From Alphaproteobacteria bacterium (GTDB taxonomy: Bacteria; Pseudomonadota; Alphaproteobacteria; RF32; CAG-239), in contig JBGUGE010000002.1 of assembly GCA_045111335.1 (NCBI GenBank), positions 1,032 through 65,031 of the forward strand: a stretch of 64,000 bases of DNA. The letters run 5' to 3'. The position numbers and the translations under genes were made by a program. The notes under the pieces were generated by a model, which was not told the origin of the DNA, did not search any database, and saw nothing but the letters and a program-made list of their open reading frames with translations. Positions 3,953 to 51,081 of this stretch are shown here, one piece after another (position 1 is the stretch's first letter; each line of letters starts with the position of its first letter).

Positions 3953-4711
3953 TTATTTGGTGCGTTTTTCCAGCATTGCGGCGCATATTTTTTGGAAGAA
4001 GAAACGTTCTTTACAGCGATCAAACGGTTGCCAGCCTTCGTCGTTTACGGCGTCCATATCGGCACCGGCGGCTACCAAATATTTTGCCATTTGCACATTA
4101 TCAAATCTGACCGCATGGTGAAGTGCGGTATAGCCGTCAGGGGCTTTGGCATTAACGTCGGCACCAGCATCTATCAGCAGCTTGACCGCGTTGTCGGCAT
4201 TATTTTTTGCCGCAAACAGCAATGGCGTTTCACCCTTTGAATAATATTCCTGCGATACCATTTCCAAATCCGGATGATACGGCATAACTTTATCCAAACA
4301 TTGTGCGTTATGCTTACTGTCAAGCATATAAAAGTACAGAGAGCCTTTAAAGCCGTCAATCCGCTCATACATAATATCTATTCCGCCCTCTTGCAGAATT
4401 TTATCCAGAGCCTCGCAATCGCCGTCCTTAATTGCATCCATTATGCCGTTTACCATATTTTCTTTTTTTATTCCTTCTTTGTCGCATCTGATTTTGCGGC
4501 CGGTACGATAATTATATTTCGGTGTCCATGCCTCGCCCGGACAGGTTGGTGAGTCAATACAGTTGGTCAGCGTTTTCACCCACACAATGCCGTCTTTACA
4601 TCTTTCGGAACCGATTGGTGCGGAATCTTTGGAATACACTTTGCCGGCATACCCCGCGGCCATACCCAAAACAAACAATAATCCTAAAGTTATAAATGTT
4701 TTCTTTTTCAT
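3953..4711 (-). CDS. secreted ankyrin-repeat protein
   Basis: N-terminal signal peptide MKKKTFITLGLLFVLGMAAG. Cys-rich module. At least 3 ankyrin repeats (TPLLFAAKNNADNAVKLLIDAGADVNA; GYTALHHAVRFDNVQMAKYLVAAGADMDA). Confidence 0.7.
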   Translation of the reverse strand: MKKKTFITLGLLFVLGMAAGYAGKVYSKDSAPIGSERCKDGIVWVKTLTNCIDSPTCPGEAWTPKYNYRTGRKIRCDKEGIKKENMVNGIMDAIKDGDCEALDKILQEGGIDIMYERIDGFKGSLYFYMLDSKHNAQCLDKVMPYHPDLEMVSQEYYSKGETPLLFAAKNNADNAVKLLIDAGADVNAKAPDGYTALHHAVRFDNVQMAKYLVAAGADMDAVNDEGWQPFDRCKERFFFQKICAAMLEKRTK

Positions 4712-4714
4712 TTT

Positions 4715-5731
4715 CTACTCCTTTGCCTCTTGTTTTTGTTGCATTTGGGATTGTAAAATATTCCTCAATCGCTCAATCCTGTCCTGAAAGTCTTTGGATT
4801 TTACATGGTTAATCGCACGTATATAAGAAATGGGAAATTGCAGATCCTTCTCAGAAATGCCGTCCGTATCGGCACCATTTTTGATTAATACGGCAGCAAT
4901 ATTGGCACTATTATTTTCTATGGAATACTTTAATAATGATTCTCCGTTTTTAGCTTTAGCATTAACATCTGCACCGGCTTTTATCAGTGCAACCGCTATG
5001 TGGTTACTGTGCATATCGATGGTACGTTCTAATAACGATTCTCCGTTTTTGTCTTGAGAATCCGTAGGCAAACCGTTTTCCACCAGCCATTTTATAATTT
5101 CATGGTCATCATTTTTGAACGCATCATTTACAATCGTCGATATTTCATCGTCATCTTCACTTAGGGGCTTTTTCTGCAACAACAGCATTCGGGTGGCTTG
5201 TTTCCTATTTTTACCGTACGCATATTGTAGCGGTGTTTTATCATTAAATTTTATGGCATTAACATTAATTTTGGCAGAATAAACCTCCGGAATACACTTC
5301 TCGGCATAGTCTATTATGTAATAAAGCAACGGCATCAGCTGTCGGTTTTCAGAATAAACCGTTGTACTTAAATAATCTGCCGGATTATCTTTCCACAATT
5401 TTGCCGCCTTTTCGCAATTTCCTGCCGTCAACGCTTCGCCGATTTTTCGCAGTTTATATTCTCGAGGATTTTTTATTTTATCTGCTTTTTCCGCATTTCC
5501 GCATTTGATAACACTTCCGGTAAAAGGATGCTGTTTATTCTGCCAAGAACAGCGCATCGGCATATCTATGCAATCACAGTAATTACAATGAAGCACCTGA
5601 AGTTTACCGCCGACACACCTTTCTTTTTCCGTAGTGTCCTCACTCATATCACGATACCATTGCCAACCTATCCCTATAAGAGCCAGCAAAATCACACAAA
5701 CGATACCCCAAATAATTTTCTTTTTCATCAC
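4715..5731 (-). CDS. secreted/membrane-anchored ankyrin-repeat protein (paralogue of 3953..4711)
   Basis: N-terminal TM/signal region. Cys-rich module (CVGGKLQVLHCNYCDCIDMPMRC). Ankyrin repeats (ESLLERTIDMHSNHIAVALIKAGADVNAKAKNGESLL...). Confidence 0.7.
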   Translation of the reverse strand: MMKKKIIWGIVCVILLALIGIGWQWYRDMSEDTTEKERCVGGKLQVLHCNYCDCIDMPMRCSWQNKQHPFTGSVIKCGNAEKADKIKNPREYKLRKIGEALTAGNCEKAAKLWKDNPADYLSTTVYSENRQLMPLLYYIIDYAEKCIPEVYSAKINVNAIKFNDKTPLQYAYGKNRKQATRMLLLQKKPLSEDDDEISTIVNDAFKNDDHEIIKWLVENGLPTDSQDKNGESLLERTIDMHSNHIAVALIKAGADVNAKAKNGESLLKYSIENNSANIAAVLIKNGADTDGISEKDLQFPISYIRAINHVKSKDFQDRIERLRNILQSQMQQKQEAKE

Positions 5732-6369
5732 CTGTTCCTTTTATCTTTGCTTCGGCAGTATTCGTAAATCGGGCATTTATCGCACAGCGGCTTTTGCGCC
5801 TTGCAGGTATAGCGGCCGAACAGTACCAGCCAATGATTGGTGTTGACAGTCATTTCCGGCGGCAGAACTTTCAGCAAATCCTTTTCTATTTCAAGCGGGG
5901 TTTTACCGCGGCTGAAATCAAGCCGGTGTGCAATTCGCATAACGTGGGTATCAACCGCTAAGGTCGGTTGATGGTACCACACATTCATCACTACATTGGC
6001 GGTTTTACGCCCCACACCGGCAAGCGTGGTCAACACATCACGGTCAGCCGGGACTTCGCCGCCGAAATCGTCGACTAATTGCCGACTCATCAGCATAATG
6101 TTTTTGGCCTTGTTATTGAACAATCCTATGGTTTTGATATGATTTTTGAGTTTTTCTTCGCCGAGAGAGAGCATTTTTTGCGGCGAATCGGCAATTTTGA
6201 ATAATGCCTCAGTTGCTTTATTAACCCCTTTATCGGTACTTTGCGCCGATAAAATCACCGCTACCAACAGCGTGTACGGATTATGAAAGTGGAGTTCGCA
6301 TTGCGGGTTGGGATTTTCGCGTTCAAAAATCCGCATAATCTCGAGGATTTCCTTTGGCGAACGCGTCAT
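5728..6369 (-). CDS. nth: endonuclease III
   Basis: HhH-GPD motif (LLVAVILSAQSTD), [4Fe-4S] Cys cluster CKAQKPLCDKCPIYEYC. 213 aa. 4-nt overlap with tsaD. Confidence 0.85.
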   Translation of the reverse strand: MTRSPKEILEIMRIFERENPNPQCELHFHNPYTLLVAVILSAQSTDKGVNKATEALFKIADSPQKMLSLGEEKLKNHIKTIGLFNNKAKNIMLMSRQLVDDFGGEVPADRDVLTTLAGVGRKTANVVMNVWYHQPTLAVDTHVMRIAHRLDFSRGKTPLEIEKDLLKVLPPEMTVNTNHWLVLFGRYTCKAQKPLCDKCPIYEYCRSKDKRNR

Positions 6370-7454
6370 GCTTTAACTCCTCCGGCACCCGGAGCCTTAG
6401 GGGCGGCCTCATCAAGCGGCCAACGCGGACGCGGTTTGAAATCAAGTTCATTGGTATATCCCAAGCGATAGCGCTCCAAACCGGCCCAAGCTACCATTAC
6501 TCCGTTATCGGTGCAAAAACGAATCGGCGGCGCGGCAAATTCCAAATCGTTGGCAAAAGCCAATTCTTTGAGCGCGTTGCGCAAATAAGTGTTGGAGGCA
6601 ACACCGCCCGAAACCACCAAATGCTCGCCTTCCGGATATTTTTGTTTGAAGTAGGCAATTGCGCGCTCTAATTTGCGTACCAAACAATCGGTCGCAGTCA
6701 TCTGAAAGCAGGCGCAGATATCGGCTACGTCCTGTTTAGGTAAAATTGCGTGTTCGACCAAACCATCTGGCGAATAAGATTCGATGATTTTGCGCACTGC
6801 GGTTTTTAAGCCGGAAAATGAGAGATTGCAATCGCCGGAATTTAAGAGTGGTCGCGGCAATGTGAAGCGTGAATCATTGCCGATAGCGGCCATTTTTTCA
6901 ATCATCGGTCCGCCCGGATAGCCCAAACCGAGCATTTTTGCAACCTTGTCAAAGGCTTCGCCGGCGGCATCGTCGATGGTAGTGCCGAGACGTTCGTAGT
7001 CTCCGACATTCTTTACCACTAAAATCTGACAATGTCCGCCCGAAACCAGCAGTAATAAATACGGAAAACGGATGTCGTTGGCAATTCGGGCGCAGAGGGC
7101 ATGACCTTCCAGATGATTTACCGCAACAAACGGCTTGTTAAGTGCCAATGCCAAAGCCTTGGCCGTCATTGCTCCGACCACCACGCCACCGATGAGCCCC
7201 GGCCCGCATGATGCGGCAATTGCGTCAATATCCTTAAGCTCGGTATGGGCGCGTTGCAGGCACAGCGATACAATCTCGTCAATATGCTCCAAGTGGGCGC
7301 GTGCGGCAATCTCCGGCACTACACCACCGTATTGTTTATGTTCTTCTTGTGATTGCAGAGCTTCGCCTAAAATCTCTTTGCTGTCACTTACAATCGCGGC
7401 TCCGGTATCATCACAGCTGCTTTCTATTCCCAAAACAATCATCGTTTTTTCCAA
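6366..7454 (-). CDS. tsaD: tRNA N6-adenosine threonylcarbamoyltransferase
   Basis: MIVLGIESSCDDTGAAIV N-terminus. Kae1/Gcp/TsaD family length and His-rich metal-binding region. Confidence 0.85.
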   Translation of the reverse strand: MEKTMIVLGIESSCDDTGAAIVSDSKEILGEALQSQEEHKQYGGVVPEIAARAHLEHIDEIVSLCLQRAHTELKDIDAIAASCGPGLIGGVVVGAMTAKALALALNKPFVAVNHLEGHALCARIANDIRFPYLLLLVSGGHCQILVVKNVGDYERLGTTIDDAAGEAFDKVAKMLGLGYPGGPMIEKMAAIGNDSRFTLPRPLLNSGDCNLSFSGLKTAVRKIIESYSPDGLVEHAILPKQDVADICACFQMTATDCLVRKLERAIAYFKQKYPEGEHLVVSGGVASNTYLRNALKELAFANDLEFAAPPIRFCTDNGVMVAWAGLERYRLGYTNELDFKPRPRWPLDEAAPKAPGAGGVKA

Positions 7455-7543: not shown

Positions 7544-8662
7544 ATGGCTAAAAATGATAAAAAAATTAACACCATACCGGCAGAAGATAAACAGCCGGAG
7601 GTGATTTCGGCAGTAAAACCGGCACCGGAGCCGCATAAACCGGAGCCGCATAAACCGCCGCACCCGGCCGAACCGCCGCATAAAAAACGCCACGGGTTGC
7701 GTAATTTTGTGTTGTTTATTATCCTTTTGGCTGTCGGTGCCGTCGGTTATTTGACCATGCAGTTGCGCCAAACCGAAAAGCTTAATACCGAAGCTTTGAA
7801 TAAGTTGCAACAAGCGTATGATGAAAAATTGAATAAAGTAACCGATAGAGTTAATATCTTAGACAGAGAAGTCGTCGGGTTGAAAAATCGGCCGATTGTC
7901 GAGCATGCCGCAGGTATCAGCGAAAATCAGCTTAATCAAAAATTGGCGGCGTTGCGCGACGAGTTGATGCATCGTTTGGGCGCAACGGATATTGCAAAAG
8001 AAACCGTTGAAGGCAAACCTGCACAAGAAACGGCCGAAAATACGGGAGTTGCCGATATCCCGCCGTTTACAAGTGTGACGCAATCCGAAAAGACTACACA
8101 AGAGATTCTGCTTGCCAGCGGGGCAATTATTGTGCGCGATTTGGCCGAACAAGGGGTTGATTTTGCTTATGAGGCCGAGGTGTTGCAAATTTTGGCACAA
8201 GGAAACGATTTGGCGGCAAAAAATGTGCAAATTGTTCGTAGCTATGCTAATTCCGGCATTACTGGTAAAAACAAACTTATTCGCGCTTTTGATAAAATTT
8301 TTGCGGAATTGAATACCGCGGAAACAAAATCGGAAACCGCCAAAGCGCAGAACACCGAAGTTGAAGCAAAATGGTACCTAAAGGTATGGAATTGGATTAA
8401 GTCTCAGGTAATTGCTAAGAAACGTGCGCAAAAACCGGTGTTTACGCCGCAAAAAGATGAAGTTTTGGATTTGGTAAACGAAGGTCGTTTGCAAGATGCA
8501 TTGAATGCCCTACGCATCAGCGAGAAGTATTCTAAGGTCGATTCCGAGCCGTTGCGCCAATGGCGTATGCAAGCGGAACGGTATTTGGAATTTGACAGCG
8601 CCATCAATGCCGTGATTATGAACGCATTAGCCAATATTCGCTTAAAGGAAATGGAACATTAG
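7544..8662 (+). CDS. membrane-anchored coiled-coil protein, Mic60/HemX-like (mitofilin-domain) candidate
   Basis: Pro/His-rich N-terminus with PEPHKP tandem repeat, one TM helix, coiled-coil, conserved C-terminal helix pair (LRQWRMQAERYLEFDSAINAV). Architecture as in alphaproteobacterial Mic60. Confidence 0.35.
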   Translation: MAKNDKKINTIPAEDKQPEVISAVKPAPEPHKPEPHKPPHPAEPPHKKRHGLRNFVLFIILLAVGAVGYLTMQLRQTEKLNTEALNKLQQAYDEKLNKVTDRVNILDREVVGLKNRPIVEHAAGISENQLNQKLAALRDELMHRLGATDIAKETVEGKPAQETAENTGVADIPPFTSVTQSEKTTQEILLASGAIIVRDLAEQGVDFAYEAEVLQILAQGNDLAAKNVQIVRSYANSGITGKNKLIRAFDKIFAELNTAETKSETAKAQNTEVEAKWYLKVWNWIKSQVIAKKRAQKPVFTPQKDEVLDLVNEGRLQDALNALRISEKYSKVDSEPLRQWRMQAERYLEFDSAINAVIMNALANIRLKEMEH

Positions 8663-8665
8663 GAG

Positions 8666-10054
8666 ATGACGGCGGATTTGCTGAAAATATGGCATCGGGC
8701 ATACGAAATTGTGCCTGAGCAGTTGAAGCGCGCGGCAAAAGTCGAGCGCGTTGCCACAGCTTTCAATACCAATATCGATGCCGTTGTTAAAATAAGCGGA
8801 AAGCGATTGTCCGAGCTTGCCGCAGAAGTCGGTATGAAATCTGCAGATTTACAAAATCCGCAAACAAAGTTGCACACGCCGCAAGATGCGGTGCGCGGAA
8901 TCAGCAAATGTTTTATCAACGGAATAGCCGAAGAATGGCTGTGTGATGACAAAGAGGTTTATACATGGCTTGAAGAGCATCTCGGTTGTAAACGGTTGCA
9001 AATGGGCGGACAGGCAGGGATTATTGCCAATGTGTCGGCGATTTTGGGGGTGCAACAGGTTTATGCTCATACCGCTGCGCATCCGAAATTAATGGCCGAG
9101 CAATTTGTTGATGCCGATAATTTATGTGCTTTTGCCGCGGACGGCACGAAACAAAAAGCGCGTGAGGTTAATCGCGACGGTGAAGAGCCGCCGATTCATC
9201 TGATTATGGAATTTGACGCCGGCGATACTCTGAGTTTGGATAACCAAATTTATATTTGCCCGAAATCTAATCGTTTTATTGCGACTTATGATACGGTTAA
9301 TACTGCGCTGAAAATCAATGACGGATTTGTAAAATACATTGATAGTCTGGGGTTTGATTTTATGATTTTGTCGGGCTTTCATGCTTTAACAGCGGAGCAC
9401 GGCGGGTTGCAGCGGATTGCCGAAACATTGCCGCTGATAAAAAAATGGAAACAAGCGAATCCGAACGGAATTATTCATTTAGAACTGGCATCAACTCAGG
9501 ATTTGGCAGTGCGGCGGGCTATTTTGGAACAATTGGCGCCGGTGGTGGATTCGCTGGGCTTGAACGAGCGAGAAGCTTTAGAAGCGGAAGAAATTGTTGC
9601 ACCCAAGAGAGATGCGCGGAACAATTTGAATGCTGTCGCGTTGCTCAATATTTTGCTTGAGCTGAAACAAAAATTGCAAACACCGAGGATTCAGTTGCAT
9701 TTTTACGGGATGTATATGACCTTGCAAAACAAAGATTTTCCGATTACTCCGGAGCAAAATAAACGCGGGATGATGTTGGCGGCCACGGTGGCGGCATCTA
9801 AGGCTGCTACTGGAAATATCGAAATTAAGAGCAATCTTTTGCAGGCTCACGGCAGGCAAATCGGGGAAAAATCGCTACAGAATTTATGTGAGTTGGCAGC
9901 GGCCTTGAACAATTCGGCAGTAAGCGAATCGGGAATAACCGAATGCGGAGGATTTGATTTAATTGCCGTACCGACGATTTTGGCGGAAAAACCGCTGACT
10001 TTGGTGGGTATGGGTGATACAATTTCAGCCGTATCGCTGATTGGGGCAAGATAA
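8666..10054 (+). CDS. ADP-dependent sugar kinase (ADP-dependent glucokinase/phosphofructokinase family, PF04587)
   Basis: Family motifs in order: NTNIDAV, RLQMGGQAGIIANV, IHLELAS, HFYGMYMTL, C-terminal GMGDTISAVSLIGA. 462 aa matches family size. Confidence 0.8.
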   Translation: MTADLLKIWHRAYEIVPEQLKRAAKVERVATAFNTNIDAVVKISGKRLSELAAEVGMKSADLQNPQTKLHTPQDAVRGISKCFINGIAEEWLCDDKEVYTWLEEHLGCKRLQMGGQAGIIANVSAILGVQQVYAHTAAHPKLMAEQFVDADNLCAFAADGTKQKAREVNRDGEEPPIHLIMEFDAGDTLSLDNQIYICPKSNRFIATYDTVNTALKINDGFVKYIDSLGFDFMILSGFHALTAEHGGLQRIAETLPLIKKWKQANPNGIIHLELASTQDLAVRRAILEQLAPVVDSLGLNEREALEAEEIVAPKRDARNNLNAVALLNILLELKQKLQTPRIQLHFYGMYMTLQNKDFPITPEQNKRGMMLAATVAASKAATGNIEIKSNLLQAHGRQIGEKSLQNLCELAAALNNSAVSESGITECGGFDLIAVPTILAEKPLTLVGMGDTISAVSLIGAR

Positions 10055-10157: not shown

Positions 10158-10631
10158 ATGGCTAGAGTTACAGTTGAAGATTGTATTGATAAACTTCCGA
10201 ATCGTTATGAGTTGGTTTTGGTTGCGGCGCAACGCGCCAAAGATATTTCTGCCGGTTCCATGATTTTGGTTGACCGTGATAACGATAAAAATTCGGTGGT
10301 TGCTTTGCGTGAAATTTCCGAGAATCGCGTCAGCATTGAAGATTTGCAGGAATCTTTGGTTAAGAATCAGCAAAAGTTGGTTGAGATTCAAGAGCCGGAA
10401 GATGAGGAAGTCGAGATTATTTCGGCCGAGAAAGAGTTAGCGTCTTTGGGCGTTCAGTTCTCCAGCGATATGATCAGCGACGAGGATTTGAACAATGTTA
10501 TGCAGATTCATGACGGTACCGAGGATGATGACAACTTAGATTTGGATTCCGATGTTGATGATATTGATTTTGACGACAGCGCCGATTTCGGTGATGAATC
10601 ATACGATGACGATATGGATGATTTAGATTAA
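10158..10631 (+). CDS. rpoZ: DNA-directed RNA polymerase subunit omega with long acidic C-terminal tail
   Basis: [31 protein letters not shown]-terminus. Located upstream of rsh. 157 aa with a D/E-rich C-terminal ~60 aa. Confidence 0.85.
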
Positions 10632-16512: not shown

Positions 16513-16529
16513 TGCTCTTTCTTTATTTG

Positions 16530-16625
16530 AAGGCGAAGGGACTTAGACCTTGCGACTATCGTTACGGCTGCTTCCTTCCGAATCTGACCGAGTTGGCGAA
16601 AACACAATCCTAAGCCCTTCATAAA
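16530..16625 (-). ncRNA. ffs: signal recognition particle RNA (4.5S/SRP RNA, small bacterial type)
   Basis: Minus-strand sequence ...gucagauucggaaggaagcagcc... matches the conserved domain IV motif. 5' gaagggcuuagg pairs with 3' cuaagucccuuc. Sits directly upstream of dnaX. Confidence 0.75.
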
Positions 16626-20692: not shown

Positions 20693-21682
20693 TTAGAGCC
20701 TAACAATCAGATCGGCAACCTCGGCCGCGGCATTTAAAACTGCCGGAGAATCGGATGGCAAAGTAGTTTCATCACCTAAAACAGAGGCGTATTTTTTAGC
20801 TATGAGTGATTGGGCAAAGCGCTTATGTTTTGGGGTAAGCCAATGGTCGCCGCCGACAAACAAATACAGCGGCTGGCCGCTACCGGTAGCCTCACAGCAC
20901 ATTGAAACCGAATCGGCGGTAATCACGATATTATCGGCACAAGCCAAAAATCCGGCATACGGGTTTGCACCTTCGGCGCCCCAGTAATACGGGTATTGCG
21001 GAATATCTTTTAAGGCGTTTTTGATGATTTTTTCGGCCTCGCTGCCGGTGCGGCGTGAGGTGGTTATCAGAATCGAGCCGCCGATTTTTTGTTTGAGCCG
21101 CTTAATGCCGTTGCACAATTCCTCCACATCTTGTTGCGGAAACGGTTTGCCTTTAATCGAGCCGCCGATAATTACCGCCGTCAAAGGCTTGGGTAAGTCG
21201 GCAAATTTTTGAGCCCATTCGGCGCGTGCCGCGGCTAAATATTCGGCGGTAATGCGGTGCGGACAGCCCACAATATAGCGGATATTGTCGCAATGTTTTT
21301 TGTTTTTATCGTGTTCCGGCACCACCACCAGATCAAACTCGCGCAAACCGGCGTTGCCGGCGTGCATCAGCTGAATGATTTTGGTGGATGGAGATTTTTT
21401 CTTGATATAGCGGGCAATCGGTGCGGTGCGGCGACTTACCGACAACACATAATCGGGAAACGGTGGCACGATTTGGCTTTTGCTGGCGGCACTGATGCCT
21501 AAAAGCGAGCGGCCGCGAATCCAGTTGGGAAGCGCCGATAACTTGGTATATTCTATGCTTTTTTCAACAATTTCGAAGTTATCCGGCAACGCATTTAATA
21601 CCCCCAACGCCTGGTTGACGCTACCGCGGCGGTTATCCATCAAACTCCAAATTGTTTTCTTCATCTTCTGCCTCGCAAACAT
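20693..21682 (-). CDS. ELM1/DUF1022 family (mitochondrial fission ELM1-like glycosyltransferase-fold) protein
   Basis: N-terminus IWSLMDNRRGSVNQALGVLNAL resembles the ELM1 family start. ~330 aa. Confidence 0.4.
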   Translation of the reverse strand: MFARQKMKKTIWSLMDNRRGSVNQALGVLNALPDNFEIVEKSIEYTKLSALPNWIRGRSLLGISAASKSQIVPPFPDYVLSVSRRTAPIARYIKKKSPSTKIIQLMHAGNAGLREFDLVVVPEHDKNKKHCDNIRYIVGCPHRITAEYLAAARAEWAQKFADLPKPLTAVIIGGSIKGKPFPQQDVEELCNGIKRLKQKIGGSILITTSRRTGSEAEKIIKNALKDIPQYPYYWGAEGANPYAGFLACADNIVITADSVSMCCEATGSGQPLYLFVGGDHWLTPKHKRFAQSLIAKKYASVLGDETTLPSDSPAVLNAAAEVADLIVRL

Positions 21683-26758: not shown

Positions 26759-28030
26759 ATGCTGATTACAACGCGCCGCAAAATAAAAAAATGGATTGTT
26801 CGCCTGATATGGCTCGGAGTTTTGGCGTTTGCGGTGTGGGCAAATTATAATCGATTTTATCACAACAACTATGCCAATTATGAAAAAGCGGTTGATTACG
26901 GTCGGGTGCGTGAAAAAAAGGAAACAATCAATCCGGTTATTGCGGCGGTTTTTTATCAGGGAAAATCGGCTGAAAATAAGTCGCTCTCCAGTTATTTGAG
27001 CCACTGGGATAATCGCCGGCTTCAAAATCCGAAAATGTTGGCGGTTCCGACTCAAATTACGCCGGAAAGCCGTCGTGTAATCGAAAAGCTTTATAAAGAA
27101 ACAGCCGAAAACGCAACAATCGACAGGGTGCTGTTGGTTTACGGACAATCGGCAGATGAGAAATTGCATCGGCAAATTTTGCGACAACATTTTAACGGAG
27201 CCGAAGTAAAATGTTTTGCGGCGGCAGAAAATGAAACAAATTTGGAAGCAGCAATCGAAAAGGCGCTTAACAGGGATAAAACCTTGGTTGTTGTGGCAGT
27301 AGACCTGAATAATGCGGAGAGCAACAAATATTTGGCAGATGAGCTGATTTATTCCGCTCAGCGCCATTTTTATAAAATTCGCATTTTTGACGAAGTGGAT
27401 ACCCAGTTGGCGCGGGCGCTGGAGGATAATTACGCTTCATGGTTTGAGACCGAAACCGACGACGGGCGAAATGAGTTGCGGCGTCAGCAAAAGAATTTGG
27501 CGGCTTATAAAAAACATTACGGCAACGATATTGTGCGCTATTTTATGCAAAATCTTAATTTGGCGGAAGATGAGGAACCGGTGTGGCCGGAAAAAAACGC
27601 GGAAACCTATCGGCTGTTTGATCGCGGCACCGTTTATATCAGATTTTTCGGCTCCGGTGATAAAGAAATGTTTTCGCGAGCCAAAATCGGCAAAAATAAG
27701 GGGATTATCGTGGCGGTGATTGAGTTGGCTCGCAAGGCCGTGTTTAAGCTGAAACAGCCGATAAAATCATATAAAATATACTTTTTGACTGATTTTGAAA
27801 AAATTGAAAAAGCGGCAAATGAACCGCTGATTAATTATTTGGAAACCGATGATGGTGTATATGTGCAATATCGCGGGCGTAAAGCCCTGATGGCCGCAGA
27901 CGAGCGTCCCGATGAAGAAGATATATTAGCGGCGGCTTTGCGGAGTCGTGCCAAAATACCCGATTCGGAGTCGGATTCGAAAATAGAGTTTTATCGGTTT
28001 AAAACAGTGGAGATTGAAAATGAAAATTAA
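26759..28030 (+). CDS. membrane-anchored protein, unknown function
   Basis: N-terminal TM helix. 423 aa. Translationally coupled to neighbours. Confidence 0.45.
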   Translation: MLITTRRKIKKWIVRLIWLGVLAFAVWANYNRFYHNNYANYEKAVDYGRVREKKETINPVIAAVFYQGKSAENKSLSSYLSHWDNRRLQNPKMLAVPTQITPESRRVIEKLYKETAENATIDRVLLVYGQSADEKLHRQILRQHFNGAEVKCFAAAENETNLEAAIEKALNRDKTLVVVAVDLNNAESNKYLADELIYSAQRHFYKIRIFDEVDTQLARALEDNYASWFETETDDGRNELRRQQKNLAAYKKHYGNDIVRYFMQNLNLAEDEEPVWPEKNAETYRLFDRGTVYIRFFGSGDKEMFSRAKIGKNKGIIVAVIELARKAVFKLKQPIKSYKIYFLTDFEKIEKAANEPLINYLETDDGVYVQYRGRKALMAADERPDEEDILAAALRSRAKIPDSESDSKIEFYRFKTVEIENEN

Positions 28031-29735
28031 CGGCTTTAAAATAAAATATTCGGCGCCGGATATCAGACGACGGGTAACGCAACAAATGCGCAAGATTGAG
28101 CTGATTGATCAAGAGCACGAATCCTATAAAAATTTGTCGGAAGGCGATAAAAAGGCGTTTAAATATTTGATTAATGCCTCGCGCATTATCAATGATGTAG
28201 CGCTGGAAATGGATCATCCGATGAATTTGGTGCAAAAGCAGGCGCTTGAGGTGGCGGCCGAGACAAGCCCGTATGCGACCAATACTCTGAAACTGTTTAA
28301 TTCGCTTAACGGGGTTGCCGGTTCAAACGGCGTTGATAAGGAGCCGGTTGAACTGTTTGAGGGAATTCATCAATATGAGGGGCGCAATTTTTATCCGACG
28401 GATTTAGATGCGGCGGGATTGTCGCGGATTATTAATAAGATGCTCGATGCCGGTAAGGTTGAGGAAGTGCGCAAAATTTTGAGCGCACGGACGATGGTTC
28501 GTCGCCAGGGTAAGGAGCTGAAAGCTATTGATTATACCGAATATTTTGCCGAGGAATTTTCGGAAATTGCCAATGAGTTGGAGTGTGCGGCGCATTTTAC
28601 GACCGATGAGCTGTTCAAAGATTATTTAGGTTGGCAGGCGCAGGCGTTGTTGCAAAACAATGTTGAAATGGATGTTTTAGCCGATAAACATTGGGCCGAA
28701 ATGCAGAATACACCGCTTGAATTTACGCTCAGTCGCGAAAATTATGATGATAAACTGACGTCAAAGCTGTTTTCGGATAAAGTGTTGTGTGCACGCTTGG
28801 AAAAGCTTAATATTCATCCTGTGCCGAAGGATATGCTGGGTATTCGTGTGGGAATTGTCAATCGGCAAGGTACGGAATTGTTGCTGAAATTTAAGGAAAA
28901 GATGACCGAGTTGGCGGCGTTGATGCCGATGAGCGATAAATACGAACAAAACGTCGGCGGTAAAAAGGGCTTAAAGCAAACAATGGTTGATGTTGATATT
29001 GCGGCGCTGACGGGTGATTATGCGCTTTGTCGCGGCGGGATTACCTTAGCCCAGAATTTGCCGAATAATGATAAGCCGAGTTTGGCTCGCGGCGGCGGTC
29101 GACGCAATGTTTATCATCGTCAGGTGCGGCGTAGCGGCGAATCGGAGAAAACCGAGAAAATCCTGAAAAAATTGGTAATTCCGGAATTACATAAATATTA
29201 TAACAATGAATACGACCATCTGTTTACCATCGGGCATGAAAACGGGCATTCGCTCGGTCCGGACAGTACTTATCAGACGGCGCTCGGCATTTATCACCAC
29301 ATTATCGAGGAGCATAAGGCCGATATGGTATCGGCGGCAATGATGCCGGAATACGTGAAGGCCGGTATTATCAGCGAAGAAGAATTAAAATCAATTTATA
29401 TCACATGGATTGTAAAACGTCATTTTATGAAGGCATATCCGCAGGATAAGGAAGCTCACCGGATGGCGGATTTGATTGAGTATAACTTTTTACATGATTA
29501 CGGCGCGTTTTGGTTTGATGCCGATAAAAAATTGCATGTTGATTTTGCAAAAATTCAATCAGGTTCTCGAAAATTGTTGGAAGAGGTCATCAAAGTTCAG
29601 CTGTCAAAATCGCCTGAAGTTGCCGAGAAATTCGTGGCTAAATGGACCGAATGGGGTGAAATGTTACAATTTATTGCCGACTTTAAACAAAGTTTAGGAA
29701 TTAAACCTTATATTAATATCATATCATCGTTTTAA
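28014..29735 (+). CDS. putative zinc metallopeptidase, DPP III (M49)-like
   Basis: IGHENGH (HExGH) and downstream IEEHKAD (EExxAD) resemble the two zinc-binding motifs of peptidase M49. 573 aa. Confidence 0.35.
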   Translation: MKMKINGFKIKYSAPDIRRRVTQQMRKIELIDQEHESYKNLSEGDKKAFKYLINASRIINDVALEMDHPMNLVQKQALEVAAETSPYATNTLKLFNSLNGVAGSNGVDKEPVELFEGIHQYEGRNFYPTDLDAAGLSRIINKMLDAGKVEEVRKILSARTMVRRQGKELKAIDYTEYFAEEFSEIANELECAAHFTTDELFKDYLGWQAQALLQNNVEMDVLADKHWAEMQNTPLEFTLSRENYDDKLTSKLFSDKVLCARLEKLNIHPVPKDMLGIRVGIVNRQGTELLLKFKEKMTELAALMPMSDKYEQNVGGKKGLKQTMVDVDIAALTGDYALCRGGITLAQNLPNNDKPSLARGGGRRNVYHRQVRRSGESEKTEKILKKLVIPELHKYYNNEYDHLFTIGHENGHSLGPDSTYQTALGIYHHIIEEHKADMVSAAMMPEYVKAGIISEEELKSIYITWIVKRHFMKAYPQDKEAHRMADLIEYNFLHDYGAFWFDADKKLHVDFAKIQSGSRKLLEEVIKVQLSKSPEVAEKFVAKWTEWGEMLQFIADFKQSLGIKPYINIISSF

Positions 29736-37609: not shown

Positions 37610-38365
37610 TTACTCACGCAAATAGGTGTAATAACGCAGCGCAAATGAGCAGGAGCGCTGTGTACCGCAGTTGCATCCGTCTGCCGCCAGCTCCGGCGTA
37701 AACGGAGTAGGGTTCATTTCGTCATTCGGCTTAGCAACGTTCATCCTTATCGGCTGCGGCAGTTTGACCAACTTTTTTTGGCCGCCGGGGATTGCCACTT
37801 CAACTATTTCATCTTCGGTGATTTCTTCTATATCACGCAAAGCGGTATCTACACCGTTTTCATCAACATAACCGAGCGCAACCGAAATCAGGCCGCTTTC
37901 TTTCCCGCCCCAATCTAAATATGACAGTGCCATACATACATCTTTTTTGAGCCCCTGATAGGCAATTTTGAAGGTAGGGAAAGTCTCTTCTCCTCGAATA
38001 ATCGGGGTTGATGAAGAAACGGCAATACCTCCGCCGTAAATATTGACGAGTTTACCGTCCTGCACCAAAAAATTCGGCATAGTGTTAGATTGCGCCATCA
38101 GTCGCATAATATCTGTTTTGGTGGCGGTATTAACGGCATAAGTGGTGCGAACATTGTCAATCAGCTGCGAAATCTGGTTAACAGTGCGGTTCAAATCGCG
38201 GTTGAATGTGTAGCGGTTGACCGCCCAAATGGTCAGGCGCGAGAACAAAAGCAAAAAAATGCAACCGAACGTAATCAGAAAAATGCGCTTGAGTTTTTTA
38301 TGATTGCGGTCATAAAAATCAAAAATTTTTTCGATATTCGATTCCGGCTCTTGAATTCGCATCAT
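37610..38365 (-). CDS. membrane-anchored protein, unknown function
   Basis: One N-terminal TM helix. 251 aa. Confidence 0.4.
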   Translation of the reverse strand: MMRIQEPESNIEKIFDFYDRNHKKLKRIFLITFGCIFLLLFSRLTIWAVNRYTFNRDLNRTVNQISQLIDNVRTTYAVNTATKTDIMRLMAQSNTMPNFLVQDGKLVNIYGGGIAVSSSTPIIRGEETFPTFKIAYQGLKKDVCMALSYLDWGGKESGLISVALGYVDENGVDTALRDIEEITEDEIVEVAIPGGQKKLVKLPQPIRMNVAKPNDEMNPTPFTPELAADGCNCGTQRSCSFALRYYTYLRE

Positions 38366-43678: not shown

Positions 43679-45142
43679 TCAGTTGCTCAGCTTAAACCAT
43701 TCAATCGGCAGACCGTTAATCACAATAAAGGCGATAATGATGCAAATATAGCCGTAAATTTGCAACATGCTCAATATATTTTGATATTTTCTTCCCGGCA
43801 GTTTGGGTGCTAAGAAGTTCAACAGGCGATTAATGCCTATAACACCGAGCGTGACGAGAATCAGCTGCGTGAATACACCGGCACTGAGCAGAATATCTTT
43901 GAATACGCCGGCAATTTTATATAAAAACGTGAAAAACAGCAAATAAACCGCCAGCAGACCGTATAACAGATAATTACCGATGTTTTTGATTTGCTCTTTT
44001 TCTAATTTGGCCTTGCGCAGATTTTCGGTGGCTAATTTTTTGATGCTTAAACCGCGCACGGTCTGCGGTTTTTCTTGTTGTTTTTTATAGTTTTCAATCT
44101 GTTCTTTGCATTTTTCCGCCACTATACACAAACCGCAACCTTTCGGCGTGAAATAAATGTGATTTTTATCTTTTTTGCACTGTTTGTAGTGGTGTCTATC
44201 CAATAAATAAGCCAAGTGGGTTTGCCACTCGAGTGCGGTAGGTCGTTCGCCGCCCTTGGTAAAAGCCCGCTCAAATAAATTCATGGTTTCTTTATGCAGA
44301 TAGTCATGAATACTGTACGGATTAGGCATTTGATACGAATCCGGCCAGAAGCCGTAGGCATAATGATATCCGGCAATTCGCTCCTGAATGGAAAGCATAT
44401 CGCCGGTTTTGCGCGGGGTTCCCGAAAACGGATGAATACCCTCGTTCAAAAGTTTGAAAATAATCACCGCCAATGCAAATTTATCCTGTTCTTCGCCCAT
44501 TTCCTTACAGGTGAGGTTCATTCCCTCAGGATAAATATATTCTTCGCTCACAAATTCTGCCGGATAGCGGGTATCTTTTTCGCCTTTAATCGAAAAACCG
44601 TCGCAATCAAATGCCACAACCAAAGGCTCTTTTTTATACACATATACGTTTGACGGTTTCAGATCGATGATATAGTGGCCGCGAACGTGTAATTGTGCCA
44701 CAACCGTGGCGATGTTGAAAGCTGCAAAAACACGCGTTCTGTAACGCTCGGGCAAACCTAAACGTTGGCGCACCGCTTTTTGAATGAGGTGGTCAAGTGA
44801 GACGGCCTCGTTTGTATCAATTTCCGGCATTAAATAACCGACGCAGAAGCCTTGAGAATCTTCCAAAAGAGCAGTCGGCCAGGTAATTTGAATATATTCT
44901 ACGCCGTCATTGTCCGTAATGTTTGGAATATTCGGCCGATTGAGCAGCATAGCCTCTAATTTCTGGCGGTTGGTATCGCTACGCTCTTTTTCATGAAAAA
45001 TTTTAGCCACACTGTGCGAATGAGTGGCATCACGATAAATTTTTCCGGCGGCTCCGCCTTTGTTCAACAGCTCGCCGAGAGTTACTTTTTCGTTGTGGCC
45101 GTCAGGGTATAAAGCCAAATATGTCATACCGGTTTCACTCAT
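43679..45142 (-). CDS. Hanks-type Ser/Thr protein kinase-like protein with Cys cluster and C-terminal multi-TM domain (TerY-P triad kinase)
   Basis: Gly loop GGAAGKIY, VAKIF (VAIK-like), catalytic loop IIDLKPSNVYV, AFDCDGF (DFG-like). Cys cluster CKKDKNHIYFTPKGCGLCIVAEKC. Then 3-4 hydrophobic helices. Confidence 0.6.
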   Translation of the reverse strand: MSETGMTYLALYPDGHNEKVTLGELLNKGGAAGKIYRDATHSHSVAKIFHEKERSDTNRQKLEAMLLNRPNIPNITDNDGVEYIQITWPTALLEDSQGFCVGYLMPEIDTNEAVSLDHLIQKAVRQRLGLPERYRTRVFAAFNIATVVAQLHVRGHYIIDLKPSNVYVYKKEPLVVAFDCDGFSIKGEKDTRYPAEFVSEEYIYPEGMNLTCKEMGEEQDKFALAVIIFKLLNEGIHPFSGTPRKTGDMLSIQERIAGYHYAYGFWPDSYQMPNPYSIHDYLHKETMNLFERAFTKGGERPTALEWQTHLAYLLDRHHYKQCKKDKNHIYFTPKGCGLCIVAEKCKEQIENYKKQQEKPQTVRGLSIKKLATENLRKAKLEKEQIKNIGNYLLYGLLAVYLLFFTFLYKIAGVFKDILLSAGVFTQLILVTLGVIGINRLLNFLAPKLPGRKYQNILSMLQIYGYICIIIAFIVINGLPIEWFKLSN

Positions 45143-45891
45143 TGCATTTTAGCCCATAAAATTGTTTTATCATCGGCATTTAATCGCCGCGCCCGCACAT
45201 CATCAAGGGTATTTTTGAGCGCCTTAACCGCATAAGTTTGTCGCGGTTCGTTTTCCAAATATTCTACAATAGGCAACAAAAATTTGTGATGAATCTTGTA
45301 AAAATCGTCAGAGAATACAAATCCGGTTACACCGTCGGTCATCAACAGCAGCCTGTCAACATATTCAAACGGAGTGAAACGCAGGCAATCCTGCCAATCA
45401 TCCATAGTGTAAAAATAGGTTTCGCATGAAAAAGCGCCGTTTTCCGGTTCGGATATAATCAGATTATCATAAGAACCGACACCGAACGCAATGCCCGCGC
45501 CGTCGCCGATGTGGAAAAATATACCGTTTCCGTTATGATAGAAAAATCCGACCAAAGTGGCGGAAAAATTAATCAAATCATCGGTGCTTTTGCTTTTATT
45601 GAAACGGTGCAGAATCAGCTTTTGGCGCGCAATATTAATCGCCGCAATAACCGATTGCCGAATATTGCGCATGCTGGCTTTAATCAGTAAATCACACAAT
45701 GTTTCGCAGATTATTTTGGCTCCGATTTGGGCATATTTGGCCGAGCCGGCACCATCTGAAATTATGCCTACGGCCTTGTTTTTATGTTGCCGATAGCAAG
45801 CGTAATCCTGGCACGGCAAACCGTTGGCCTTATGCAAAGCCCCACGAACCGAAACGGATAAAAGCCGTATGTTGTTGCTATTGGTAGGCAT
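45139..45891 (-). CDS. PP2C-family Ser/Thr phosphatase (PP2C_2)
   Basis: LPCQDYA ... ISDGAGSAKYA ... HIGDGAG ... MTDGV motifs. Overlaps the kinase start by 4 nt. Confidence 0.6.
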   Translation of the reverse strand: MPTNSNNIRLLSVSVRGALHKANGLPCQDYACYRQHKNKAVGIISDGAGSAKYAQIGAKIICETLCDLLIKASMRNIRQSVIAAINIARQKLILHRFNKSKSTDDLINFSATLVGFFYHNGNGIFFHIGDGAGIAFGVGSYDNLIISEPENGAFSCETYFYTMDDWQDCLRFTPFEYVDRLLLMTDGVTGFVFSDDFYKIHHKFLLPIVEYLENEPRQTYAVKALKNTLDDVRARRLNADDKTILWAKMQ

Positions 45892-45896
45892 ATTTT

Positions 45897-46577
45897 TTAC
45901 TTTTCATTCCACTCCGTTATGTCGTCAAGGTAGTTGTTGGCATTAGGCGCCGCTTTTGAAATGCACGAAACACTGCGACTGAGCCAGAGGAAGAATTCGG
46001 TGAATTTCAGTCCGGTCAGGCGTTTGGGCGGTAACATCGAAAATTTAGCCAATTTATCCAAATTTGCGCCCTGAGTGCCGATGGCATGAATAACAACTTT
46101 TTTGTTTTTCTGAGCATAGCGGCAGATTTCTGCCGAATCTTCCCAACCGTAATCAGTAGGTTCTCCGTCGCTTATAAGGAAAATCCACGGGCGCTTTGAG
46201 GTTACTCCGCAACTGTCATAGAGGCATTTTTGCTCCTCAATTTTTTGCAACGCCATTTCCATGGCCTTACCGAGCGGAGTCAAACCGCCGGCCTCCATTA
46301 TCGGTGCGGTAAAATTCATGGCATCGGTCCAATCTGATTCGATTTTGACTTCGTCTTTGCCGAAAGCCTTGATGATAAGCAACTGCACACGCGAACTGGC
46401 ATCAATGTCGTCTTTTAATTCCTTTTCCAAAGCCACCAGGCCAGCGTTCAGCTGTTTAATCGGCTCGCCACGCATCGAACCCGAGCAATCAAGCACCAAC
46501 ACGCACGGTGTGCGCTCATTGGCGTTGTCGGCAAATTCGACATAGGGAATACGTTCAATTGTGTTATTATCAGCCAT
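45897..46577 (-). CDS. TerY-like von Willebrand factor A domain protein
   Basis: MIDAS DCSGSM...T...ISDGEPTD. 226 aa. Confidence 0.65.
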   Translation of the reverse strand: MADNNTIERIPYVEFADNANERTPCVLVLDCSGSMRGEPIKQLNAGLVALEKELKDDIDASSRVQLLIIKAFGKDEVKIESDWTDAMNFTAPIMEAGGLTPLGKAMEMALQKIEEQKCLYDSCGVTSKRPWIFLISDGEPTDYGWEDSAEICRYAQKNKKVVIHAIGTQGANLDKLAKFSMLPPKRLTGLKFTEFFLWLSRSVSCISKAAPNANNYLDDITEWNEK

Positions 46578-50172: not shown

Positions 50173-51081
50173 TTAATTAAGATTGTCATCGCCCGGCGGC
50201 GACGCTTTTGACTTTTCTAACACAAGAAATCTGTTCTTGTCAAATCTTCTTTTATTATATGTACCGCGCAACTGAGCAATACGCCTGCTGATTTCTTCTT
50301 CACGCGAGGTTGCTTCGGATTTTTCCGGTTCTTCGTTTTGCGGTGCGGCCACAGCTGTGGAAGTTGTTTCGGCCGGAGTTGTTACCTCAAGCCGTAATTC
50401 CAACAACATAATTCTTTTGAGCCAATTTTCCGCATTAAAATCTTCAGTCAGATCGGTATCGTCTTCATGATCTATGCCTAAGCTGGAACGCTCTTTGGGG
50501 CTGAAATTATAATCATAACCCAAACTTTGCAACGATTTGAGCATTCTGTAAATAGGTTTGGCCCGCTCGTATTCATCGCGTTCCACCTCAGTTTCAACCT
50601 CATCACGCGTATAATTCATGATTAAGTCGCGGATTTCGCGCAAACGAGTGATATTGAGGCGCAGTTCGTCCAAACGCTGCGAATCTTCCGGATCGGTAAC
50701 GCGCAGCAGGCAAAAGGCCGTGAACAGCGTAAACTCGTAGCGATCGGTCATATTCAGAAAATCGGTTCTTTCTTCGTAGTCTTCGCGCGTGATATAGCCG
50801 TCGTTCATGTGCTTCATGATGTTTGCGGCATTTTCCAAGATCTCGTAGTGTGTTTTTTCGGGAGATTCATATACACAGCTGACGGTCAGTTCTTGCACCA
50901 AGCGCTGCATTATCTCATATTTGGTATAAGTTTTGCCGCTGAATTCTACCACATAATCGTTTGGAGCCAAAATAACCTCACGCAGAATGGTGCAGGCGTT
51001 TTGGCGGCTGACGGCCGGAAAACAATTTTCCGTCGCGTCGTATAATGCGTCAAAATGTGTGCAGCTTTCGTAACGCCCCAT
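50173..51081 (-). CDS. acidic hypothetical protein
   Basis: 302 aa, D/E-rich, no recognised motif. Tightly linked to the TerB-like gene. Confidence 0.4.
   Translation of the reverse strand: MGRYESCTHFDALYDATENCFPAVSRQNACTILREVILAPNDYVVEFSGKTYTKYEIMQRLVQELTVSCVYESPEKTHYEILENAANIMKHMNDGYITREDYEERTDFLNMTDRYEFTLFTAFCLLRVTDPEDSQRLDELRLNITRLREIRDLIMNYTRDEVETEVERDEYERAKPIYRMLKSLQSLGYDYNFSPKERSSLGIDHEDDTDLTEDFNAENWLKRIMLLELRLEVTTPAETTSTAVAAPQNEEPEKSEATSREEEISRRIAQLRGTYNKRRFDKNRFLVLEKSKASPPGDDNLN

Follow-up and report, generated by a model that had tools for sequence, protein, structure and literature searches.

A predicted ADP-dependent glucokinase of a bacterial clade in an alphaproteobacterial lineage from animal gut and rumen

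Introduction

Recent reviews treat the ADP-dependent sugar kinases as an archaeal and animal family, and a gene with the hallmarks of this family in an alphaproteobacterial genome raises the questions of whether it is a genuine member, which sugar its product phosphorylates, and whether it came from a eukaryote, from an archaeon or by descent within bacteria. The present study addresses these questions for one gene (the kinase) and for the gene directly upstream of it (X) in a 64-kb window, i.e. the whole stretch of DNA analyzed. No characterized or assayed bacterial enzyme, and no report on the alphaproteobacterial clade described below, was found in the searchable literature; a paper on the CPR reports that PF04587, the Pfam family concerned, is absent, and the gene is noted as lacking in a paper on Tenericutes.

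Results

The kinase gene is a real, intact gene for an ADP-dependent sugar kinase of the ribokinase superfamily. Its reading frame starts with ATG, and in a Pfam profile search residues 28-459 of the product matched PF04587 (ADP_PFK_GK) over profile positions 2-429 of 430, i.e. full length, at 239.5 bits (cutoff 27; E = 7.3e-71), a score that places the match far beyond chance and bears out the membership in the ADPGK/ADP-PFK family proposed in a preliminary description of this DNA. The AlphaFold model (pLDDT 92.5, pTM 0.91) has a large Rossmann-like domain and a small alpha/beta lid and superposes on the solved ADP-dependent kinases. In Foldseek the closest superpositions were with the glucose-specific ADP-GKs 5o0j and 1ua4 (TM 0.86-0.88, rmsd 2.7-2.8 Å), while the remaining ribokinase-fold kinases, with adenosine kinases as the next group, reached TM values of at most 0.44, leaving a wide gap. 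The top 22 Foldseek matches and all 14 PDB sequence matches were ADP-dependent kinases, with no PfkB or ribokinase protein leading either search.

All five motifs named in the preliminary description were found (NTNIDA, MGGQAGI, HLELA, HFYGMYMTL and GMGDTIS; Table 1). Residues of the catalytic and nucleotide sites are conserved (R203, G450-D451, the HXE and NXXE motifs, and H345), and the Asp of GXGD was present in 130/130 aligned family members; the R206A mutant of AncMsPFK is inactive (PMC7948494). From the conserved nucleotide-site residues we infer that ADP rather than ATP would serve as phosphoryl donor.

Table 1. Position of the kinase gene, its motifs and the neighboring genes in the window; A1 is an alignment of 47 relatives of the kinase, and N32/N34/D36, E90, K179, N181, R206 and R212 are residues of AncMsPFK
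Feature	Position	Strand	Basis
nth (endonuclease III), conserved synteny anchor	5728..6369	-	translation; HhH-GPD on orthologues in L002, L008, L009
tsaD, divergent from X, conserved synteny anchor	6366..7454	-	translation; PF00814 on orthologues in L002, L008, L009
Gene X, 372 aa, adjoins kinase upstream	7544..8662	+	ORF; directly upstream in 5/5 alphaproteobacterial loci
ADP-dependent sugar kinase gene of the bacterial clade, predicted glucokinase, 462 aa	8666..10054	+	ORF, PF04587, AlphaFold, Foldseek
NTNIDA, aa 34-39: N34, N36, D38 equivalent to N32/N34/D36, sugar-binding hinge	8765..8782	+	roles PMC7948494; invariant in A1
Glu90, equivalent to E90	8933..8935	+	alignment mapping; invariant in A1
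MGGQAGI, aa 113-119: G114, G115, Q116 touch sugar ring	9002..9022	+	invariant in A1
PPIHLIMEF: P176 in place of K179 (Lys that binds the phosphate of fructose-6-P), H178 in place of N181	9188..9214	+	PMC7948494; H178 invariant in A1
PKSNRF...D: R203 equivalent to R206, essential catalytic Arg; D209 in place of PFK-type R212	9260..9292	+	R203, D209 invariant in A1
HLELA, aa 271-275: HXE motif, H271 and E273, Mg-ADP binding	9476..9490	+	
NERE, aa 300-303: NXXE motif, N300 and E303, Mg-ADP binding	9563..9574	+	
HFYGMYMTL, aa 345-353: H345 equivalent to H360, ribose-contacting; Y347 in adenine pocket wall	9698..9724	+	
GMGDTIS, aa 448-454: GXGD motif, D451 catalytic base, equivalent to D471	10007..10027	+	invariant in A1
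rpoZ, downstream of kinase	10158..10631	+	PF01192, 60.2 bits

Sugar specificity was read from signature residues established in archaeal enzymes, and their use for a bacterial kinase is an extrapolation. In AncMsPFK numbering, K179, N181 and R212 are conserved in phosphofructokinases (PFK) and bifunctional enzymes only, E90 is conserved in glucokinases (GK) and bifunctional enzymes only, and specific GKs have His at position 181; in AncMsPFK the Km for fructose-6-phosphate (F6P) rises approximately 1000-fold in K179A and approximately 200-fold in N181A and R212A (PMC7948494). At positions 90/179/181/212 the kinase has E/P/H/D, P. furiosus GK E/C/H/D and mouse ADPGK E/E/H/D, and the K/N/R triad is kept in the Methanosarcinales PFK clade. 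The kinase thus has Glu and His (E90 and H178) at the two positions that mark a GK; its E/P/H/D-type pattern is common to the whole bacterial clade, E90, H178 and D209 being invariant in 47 relatives, and the Lys179/Asn181/Arg212 triad was absent when looked for in the kinase and throughout that clade. The activity first proposed, on "hexose or fructose-6-P", can accordingly be kept in its first half, which agrees with the glucokinase-type residues, and not in its second, for which the triad is replaced by P176, H178 and D209.

Among NCBIfam models the best match was ADP-glucokinase NF010642 at 208.4 bits (curated cutoff 387); the ADP-PFK model TIGR02045 scored lower (183.6 bits, cutoff 408), and the ADP-GK equivalog NF010641 gave 174.2 bits against a cutoff of 554. 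Because it falls below both equivalog cutoffs, the kinase is not an orthologue of the characterized archaeal GKs. At position 244 it has His239 where P. furiosus GK has Gln, and its hexose range could therefore differ; His is the commonest state at this position among GK-type sequences in the alignment and is present in mouse ADPGK too.

Gene context was searched for metabolic hints. None were found within the alphaproteobacterial lineage, where the neighbors are housekeeping genes, and the contexts in Opitutales, Ancylomarina and L010 were likewise uninformative. In two loci of other clade members (L003 and L004) the kinase gene follows a GH31 alpha-glucosidase gene at a distance of 4 nt, and in another (L007) phosphoglucomutase (PGM) and glucose-6-phosphate isomerase (PGI) genes lie within 3 kb of it, neighbors that point to glucose and glucose-6-phosphate. 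Neither an ATP-dependent glucokinase nor a pfk is encoded within the 64-kb window.

The kinase falls in a bacterial branch of the family, one already annotated in databases under the RefSeq name 'ADP-dependent glucokinase/phosphofructokinase'. Trees were built by neighbor-joining (NJ) on gamma-corrected distances, and the deep branching order is for that reason untrustworthy; the bacterial clade including the kinase was recovered in 100/100 bootstraps. Its members come from Alphaproteobacteria, Myxococcota, Bacteroidota (the cultured Ancylomarina and Labilibaculum), Fibrobacteraceae, Planctomycetota and Opitutales, and they make up hundreds of 90%-identity clusters in at least six phyla. Against the kinase, other bacterial sequences scored 311-507 bits and archaeal ones 190-206 bits at 30-32% identity. 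A search of genome contigs with the single kinase protein returned one locus, in a roe-deer reticulum MAG. The family had been called rare in bacteria, and it is indeed small as a whole (1.84 billion representatives include 686 clusters of it at 50% identity), but the description is only partly right for a coherent clade of this breadth that includes cultured Bacteroidota and already bears a RefSeq name.

Signs of recent transfer were sought in GC, GC3 and synteny, and none were found. The kinase gene has GC/GC3 of 0.464/0.473 compared with 0.45-0.51 in its neighbors, and the order nth-tsaD-X-kinase occurs in 5/5 alphaproteobacterial loci, even where kinase identity falls to 37%. The composition, which matches that of the neighbors, and the kept order argue for old vertical inheritance, at a fixed position, within one alphaproteobacterial lineage that comprises animal-gut and rumen MAGs. 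Heimdall/Asgard kinases were the NJ sister of the bacterial clade in 29/100 bootstraps; with such a placement, and with other archaeal clades scoring nearly as high (approximately 190 bits), an Asgard donor is not claimed. A long-branch group (P0242 and its relatives) was at one time suspected to be eukaryotic, and a PDB search showed that it is not.

Protein X starts with a disordered Pro/Lys-rich N-terminus; a long helix covers aa 51-115, with one transmembrane helix at aa 56-74, and the C-terminal domain (aa 180-372) is confidently predicted and consists of helices throughout. Between the stop codon of X and the kinase ATG there are only 3 nt, and the two genes are therefore probably co-transcribed; promoter and terminator scans around them stayed at chance level (8 against 6.6 expected, and 4 against 4.3 expected) and speak neither for nor against this. 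The upstream gene had been called Mic60-like, which is apt for its architecture of a membrane-anchored coiled coil but finds no counterpart in homology: mitofilin PF09731 did not match X or three orthologues even at E <= 10, Mic60 was not among the matches of X in a Foldseek search or a PDB profile search, and no Pfam or PDB relative of X was found. The kinase gene does lie upstream of rpoZ, as previously described, and this downstream neighbor occurs in this genome only, other genes following in L001, L002, L008 and L009. The X-kinase pair persists from 55% down to 37% kinase identity, and this tight, conserved pairing is the sole feature that we are left without an explanation for.

Discussion

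The product of this gene is most likely an ADP-dependent glucokinase, to judge from its sequence and predicted fold. A cytosolic enzyme of this kind, belonging to the bacterial clade, is the best explanation of the data and in our estimation a quite probable one, and we infer glucose to be its acceptor. By homology with the archaeal enzymes, the reaction would be ADP + D-glucose -> AMP + glucose-6-phosphate. Glucose would bind in the cleft that separates the small lid from the large Rossmann-like domain, held by N34, D38, E90, G114-Q116, H178 and H239. The large domain would bind Mg-ADP with its HXE (H271/E273) and NXXE (N300/E303) motifs, with H345 and with an adenine pocket that is hydrophobic. 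Domain closure would follow, with the C6 hydroxyl deprotonated by D451 of GXGD and the transferred beta-phosphate stabilized by R203.

An alternative explanation could be an ADP-dependent phosphofructokinase, or a bifunctional PFK/GK of the Methanococcales/Methanosarcinales type, acting in place of PfkA in glycolysis. The ancestral Methanosarcinales ADP-PFK 6c8z is both the top PDB sequence match (177 bits) and the match with the top Foldseek E-value, the RefSeq name leaves both activities open, and E90 occurs in bifunctional enzymes too. This would not account for the presence of P, H and D, in the kinase and its whole clade, at the three positions where PFK and bifunctional enzymes have K179, N181 and R212, given the large increases in the Km for F6P that the single mutants at these positions cause in AncMsPFK, and it is very unlikely also in view of the TIGR02045 score, which lies under that of the GK model, the highest TM-scores, which are to specific GKs, and the identity over trimmed columns, which is greater to P. 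furiosus GK (30.9%) than to 6c8z (28.0%). Rather different is the idea of a kinase dependent on ADP or another NDP and acting, perhaps with protein X, on an unphosphorylated sugar other than glucose, for which glucosamine, mannose, 1,5-anhydroglucitol or a hexose supplied by the host or the diet would be candidates. It would be consistent with the separation of the bacterial clade from every characterized enzyme, the scores below equivalog cutoffs, His239 in place of the glucose-contacting Gln244, the promiscuous phosphorylation of 1,5-anhydroglucitol by ADPGK (PMC12965863) and the conserved pairing with X. We regard it as unlikely, however, since conservation extends to all the other residues given as contacting glucose in the M. 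jannaschii and T. litoralis complexes, His at position 244 also occurs in mouse ADPGK, which is a glucokinase, and the GH31 and PGM/PGI neighbors in other clade members favor glucose and glucose-6-phosphate.

With respect to origin, the preliminary description had raised a possible acquisition from a eukaryotic host, and a recent horizontal transfer of this kind now appears extremely improbable. ADPGK is present in eukaryotes, and contact with eukaryotic cells is suggested by ankyrin-repeat proteins among the products of the window. Yet mouse ADPGK (the 5ccf chain, the one sequence that serves as eukaryotic anchor in these comparisons) matches the kinase at only 59 bits, with 23% identity and a Foldseek TM of 0.64-0.66, the weakest among the family structures; it is about equidistant from all prokaryotic clades and joins an archaeal group in the NJ tree, apart from the bacterial clade. 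A eukaryotic donor is unsupported because of this low identity and this branching. The 150 best representatives, of which the lowest listed scored 107 bits, above the mouse level, included none that was recognized as eukaryote-like; published trees place eukaryotic ADPGK as sister to Asgard archaea (PMC11976288), composition equals that of the neighbors, and synteny is kept across a deep alphaproteobacterial divergence. Two further ideas, both quite unlikely as we see them, are that the X-kinase pair may be a functional module, or that an old transfer from Asgard archaea to bacteria lies behind the weakly supported sister placement of the Heimdall-type kinases. If the pair is a module, the ADP-glucokinase could be tethered or regulated by X at the inner membrane, much as eukaryotic ADPGK is anchored in a membrane, or X could link the kinase to the uptake of sugar.

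A glucokinase of vertical descent within the alphaproteobacterial lineage remains our preferred reading. Several hundred sequences, this gene among them, make up a coherent bacterial clade whose glucokinase signature is clean, and at least some of these sequences come from animal-gut and rumen metagenomes. The annotation 'glucokinase/phosphofructokinase' can be narrowed to glucokinase for this clade, and the account of how eukaryotes acquired ADPGK is unchanged by the result. An assayed member would extend the enzymology of 'modified glycolysis' to bacteria growing at moderate temperatures, and would probe the idea that use of ADP allows glycolysis to start when ATP is scarce; the rationale of ADP use under energy limitation or in a host cytosol is at present speculation.

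Comparison with known enzymes

The Thermococcales ADP-GKs (P. furiosus 1UA4, P. horikoshii 5O0J, T. litoralis 1GC5/4B8S; EC 2.7.1.147) belong to the same Pfam family as the kinase and share its two-domain fold (TM 0.84-0.88), its catalytic Arg, GXGD Asp and HXE/NXXE Mg-ADP motifs, which are identical, and its type of specificity signature (Glu90, His at 181, no Lys179, Asp at 212). They differ in that identity is only approximately 30%, the kinase falling in a bacterial clade apart from theirs (bootstrap 100%), and in that they are hyperthermophile enzymes with Gln244, whereas the kinase comes from a bacterial MAG lineage of animal gut and rumen and has His239. AncMsPFK (6C8Z/6XIO) and the Methanosarcinales ADP-PFK or PFK/GK enzymes likewise have the same fold and catalytic machinery, and 6c8z has the highest phmmer score among solved structures, but they carry K179/N181/R212 where the kinase has P/H/D and lie in a different clade of the tree. 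The best non-bacterial matches are Asgard kinases of the Heimdallarchaeota type (P0155 and P0178; 206 bits, 32-35% identity), with a GK-type signature, E/(Y,F)/H/D/H, like that of the kinase, and eukaryotic ADPGK, as represented by mouse 5CCF, is of the same family with the GK-type residues E, H and D, while standing outside the bacterial clade. Closest are the RefSeq bacterial PF04587 proteins (for example those of Ancylomarina longa, Labilibaculum sp., and Myxococcota and Opitutales MAGs), which share both clade and signature at 38-65% identity. Within this clade the alphaproteobacterial sub-lineage is set apart by proteins shorter by approximately 12 residues (462-467 aa compared with 472-483 aa in other members) and by the coupling to gene X beside tsaD, which is peculiar to it.

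Family membership and fold

The open reading frame is real, and all five motifs listed for it in the preliminary description were located exactly (table), together with an NXXE motif. By every feature that could be tested the product is an ADP-dependent sugar kinase, as had been proposed: PF04587 (ADP_PFK_GK) matched it over almost its whole length (239.5 bits, cutoff 27, E = 7e-71), and 14 of 14 PDB sequence matches were ADP-dependent sugar kinases. An AlphaFold model built with 47 homologues as input was confident (pLDDT 92.5, pTM 0.91). Its first 22 PDB matches were all ADP-dependent kinases, so the best matches were not the generic PfkB/ribokinase proteins against which that proposal had been set; adenosine kinases and PfkB proteins formed the next fold group, at TM 0.44 or less. 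The closest superpositions were with two glucose-specific enzymes, 5o0j of P. horikoshii and 1ua4 of P. furiosus (TM 0.86-0.88, rmsd 2.7-2.8 A), and mouse ADPGK was the lowest structure within the family (TM 0.64-0.66).

Features of the window and of related loci (L001, L002, L008 and L009 are alphaproteobacterial contig loci carrying relatives of the kinase)
Feature	Position	Strand	Remark
Kinase ORF	8666-10054	+	ATG start, 462 codons
NTNIDA	aa 34-39		in kinase
MGGQAGI	aa 113-119		in kinase
HLELA	aa 271-275		in kinase
NERE (NXXE motif)	aa 300-303		in kinase
HFYGMYMTL	aa 345-353		in kinase
GMGDTIS	aa 448-454		in kinase
Gene X	7544-8662	+
Gene X orthologue	L001 4916-5968
Gene X orthologue	L002 8907-9989
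Gene X orthologue	L008 6267-7262
Gene X orthologue	L009 4957-5985
rpoZ	10158-10631	+	downstream of kinase; product 157 aa
Ankyrin-repeat genes, two adjacent	3953-4711 and 4715-5731	-	just upstream of nth
Ankyrin-repeat gene	L001 7477-8160	-	adjoins kinase in roe-deer rumen MAG
Small SRP RNA, bacterial	16529-16623	-	RF00169, 59 bits
ELM1 family gene	20693-21682	-	'mitochondrial fission ELM1', PF06258, strong match, 234 bits
PilS-like gene	37610-38365	-	251 aa; matches PilS N-terminal (type IVb pilin-like) weakly; directly 3' of secA, same strand
Kinase-phosphatase-VWA cluster	43679-46577	-	Ser/Thr protein kinase, PP2C phosphatase, VWA-domain protein

Sugar specificity and metabolic context

The structure of AncMsPFK, an ancestral Methanosarcinales ADP-PFK, with fructose-6-phosphate and an alanine scan fix the specificity residues of the family. 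In its numbering N32, D36, R206 and D471 are conserved family-wide, E90 is kept solely in glucokinases and bifunctional enzymes, and K179, N181 and R212 solely in PFKs and bifunctional enzymes; the substitution K179A increases the fructose-6-phosphate Km about 1000-fold, N181A and R212A do so about 200-fold, and His instead of N181 is the state of specific glucokinases (PMC7948494). Mapped through our 129-sequence alignment, the sugar-site equivalents in the kinase are N34, N36, D38, E90 and G114-G115-Q116, with R203 equivalent to R206, H239 at the Q244 position and G450-D451 present, and the PFK-type positions K179, N181 and R212 are occupied by P176, H178 and D209. P. furiosus GK has E/C/H/D and mouse ADPGK E/E/H/D at the E90/K179/N181/R212 positions, and K/N/R is retained in the clade around Methanosarcinales PFK. 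The residue signature thus read from the alignment is the glucokinase pattern, common to every member of the bacterial clade examined, and the specificity and catalytic residues are invariant in 47 relatives. The predicted Mg-ADP site is likewise conserved (HXE, NXXE, ribose-contacting His345 and a hydrophobic adenine pocket). Among NCBIfam models the ADP-GK model NF010642 (208 bits) outranked the ADP-PFK model (184 bits), but the kinase scored far under the cutoff of every equivalog model; it therefore has no orthologue among the archaeal enzymes that have been characterised, and residues, not orthology, are the ground on which its substrate is assigned. On those residues the protein is most likely a glucokinase rather than a PFK, so that of the "hexose or fructose-6-P" activity first suggested, the hexose side is much the likelier (E90, H178).

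Neighbouring genes in the alphaproteobacterial lineage gave no metabolic hint. In two Myxococcota-type loci (L003 and L004, 7588-11437) the gene for a GH31 alpha-glucosidase stops 4 nt short of the kinase gene, likely a glucoside-to-glucose-6-phosphate operon, and in L007 phosphoglucomutase and glucose-6-phosphate isomerase genes lie within 3 kb. Both contexts in the bacterial clade agree with free glucose as the substrate of the kinase; those in Opitutales, Ancylomarina and L010 were uninformative. Genes for other types of glucokinase or phosphofructokinase are absent from the 64-kb window.

Distribution and origin

The family had been called rare in bacteria. It is indeed small (686 clusters at E <= 1e-3 when HMMER was run exhaustively over 1.84 billion representatives clustered at 50% identity), but its bacterial clade is sizeable and already annotated. 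A search of 5.8 billion proteins returned at least 120 clusters at 50-65% identity, the named ones as 'MAG: ADP-dependent glucokinase/phosphofructokinase [Alphaproteobacteria bacterium]'; the sole species-level genome match was a roe-deer reticulum MAG. Scores in the HMMER scan fell in a step, from about 10 full-length clusters at 311-507 bits, including Myxococcota- and Opitutales-named sequences, to 206 bits or less for all others, headed by a Heimdallarchaeote. A Myxococcota-type query added members from Bacteroidota (among them the cultured Ancylomarina longa and Labilibaculum sp.), Fibrobacteraceae, Planctomycetota and Flavobacteriaceae, all with the RefSeq name 'ADP-dependent glucokinase/phosphofructokinase'. 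One relative, P0107 (594 aa, 50% identity), has a response-regulator receiver domain (PF00072) recorded beside PF04587, either through a fusion or through an error in gene calling.

Acquisition from a eukaryotic host had been raised as a possibility. In a neighbour-joining tree (129 sequences, 454 columns, gamma-corrected distances) the bacterial sequences, the kinase included, formed a single clade (bootstrap 100/100), and mouse ADPGK, the eukaryotic comparator (PDB chain sequence), branched instead with an archaeal group; it is 23% identical to the kinase and scored 45-65 bits against every prokaryotic clade, favouring none. In published maximum-likelihood trees eukaryotic ADPGK is sister to Asgard archaea (PMC11976288). 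The evidence thus lends no support to a eukaryotic donor. A group that included the Heimdall and "Asgard group" sequences also reached 100/100 and was nominally sister to the bacterial clade, at a bootstrap of just 29/100; further archaeal clades scored nearly equally against the kinase (about 190 bits), so that no single donor lineage is picked out, and distance trees with a single eukaryote call for caution over deep branching order. Inside the bacterial clade every alphaproteobacterial-type kinase fell into a single group without any labelled non-alphaproteobacterial member (bootstrap 30/60), sister to a mixed Planctomycetota/Fibrobacteraceae/Bacteroidota group.

Nor is the gene a recent transfer. 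Its GC/GC3 (0.464/0.473) is at the level of adjoining housekeeping genes, the window carries core genes usual for an alphaproteobacterium (secA, dnaX, serS, RNase G, mla operon, folD, miaB, lnt, mpl, ldcA, SRP RNA), and the order nth-tsaD-X-kinase is kept in all five alphaproteobacterial loci examined (the window, L001, L002, L008 and L009), even in L008, where the kinase is just 37% identical; genes 3' of it vary. Gene X, the upstream neighbour, always lies 2-15 nt from the kinase gene and divergent from tsaD, and evolves at a higher rate than the kinase. Its product is predicted to be a lineage-specific membrane-anchored coiled-coil protein, whose confidently predicted helical C-terminal domain found no relative in Pfam or PDB.

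Other features of the window

As described, rpoZ follows the kinase gene; its product bears a long, extremely acidic C-terminal tail past a 53-residue Rpb6 domain, and a full-length RelA/SpoT homologue comes next. The ankyrin-repeat proteins suggest that the bacterium interacts with cells of eukaryotes, either an animal host or protists of the gut. The SRP RNA, immediately upstream of dnaX, is the sole Rfam match. Four ORFs of 302-573 aa had no Pfam match at E <= 1e-5: 26759-28030 (+), 28014-29735 (+), 50173-51081 (-) and 60163-61452 (-); the first two, which share 17 nt, may be an operon.

Comparison with known enzymes

General reviews treat ADP-GK as an archaeal and animal enzyme, or as less common in bacteria, and specialists have already remarked on the family's presence in bacteria (PMC7948494). 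Our literature search found no paper on this alphaproteobacterial clade or on an assayed bacterial enzyme; the interest of the kinase lies mainly in a biochemically uncharacterised bacterial clade and an unexplained conserved coupling to gene X. It fails the criteria of ADP-PFKs and does not group with eukaryotic ADPGK. It would work like the archaeal ADP-glucokinases, but differs from them in falling under their equivalog cutoffs.
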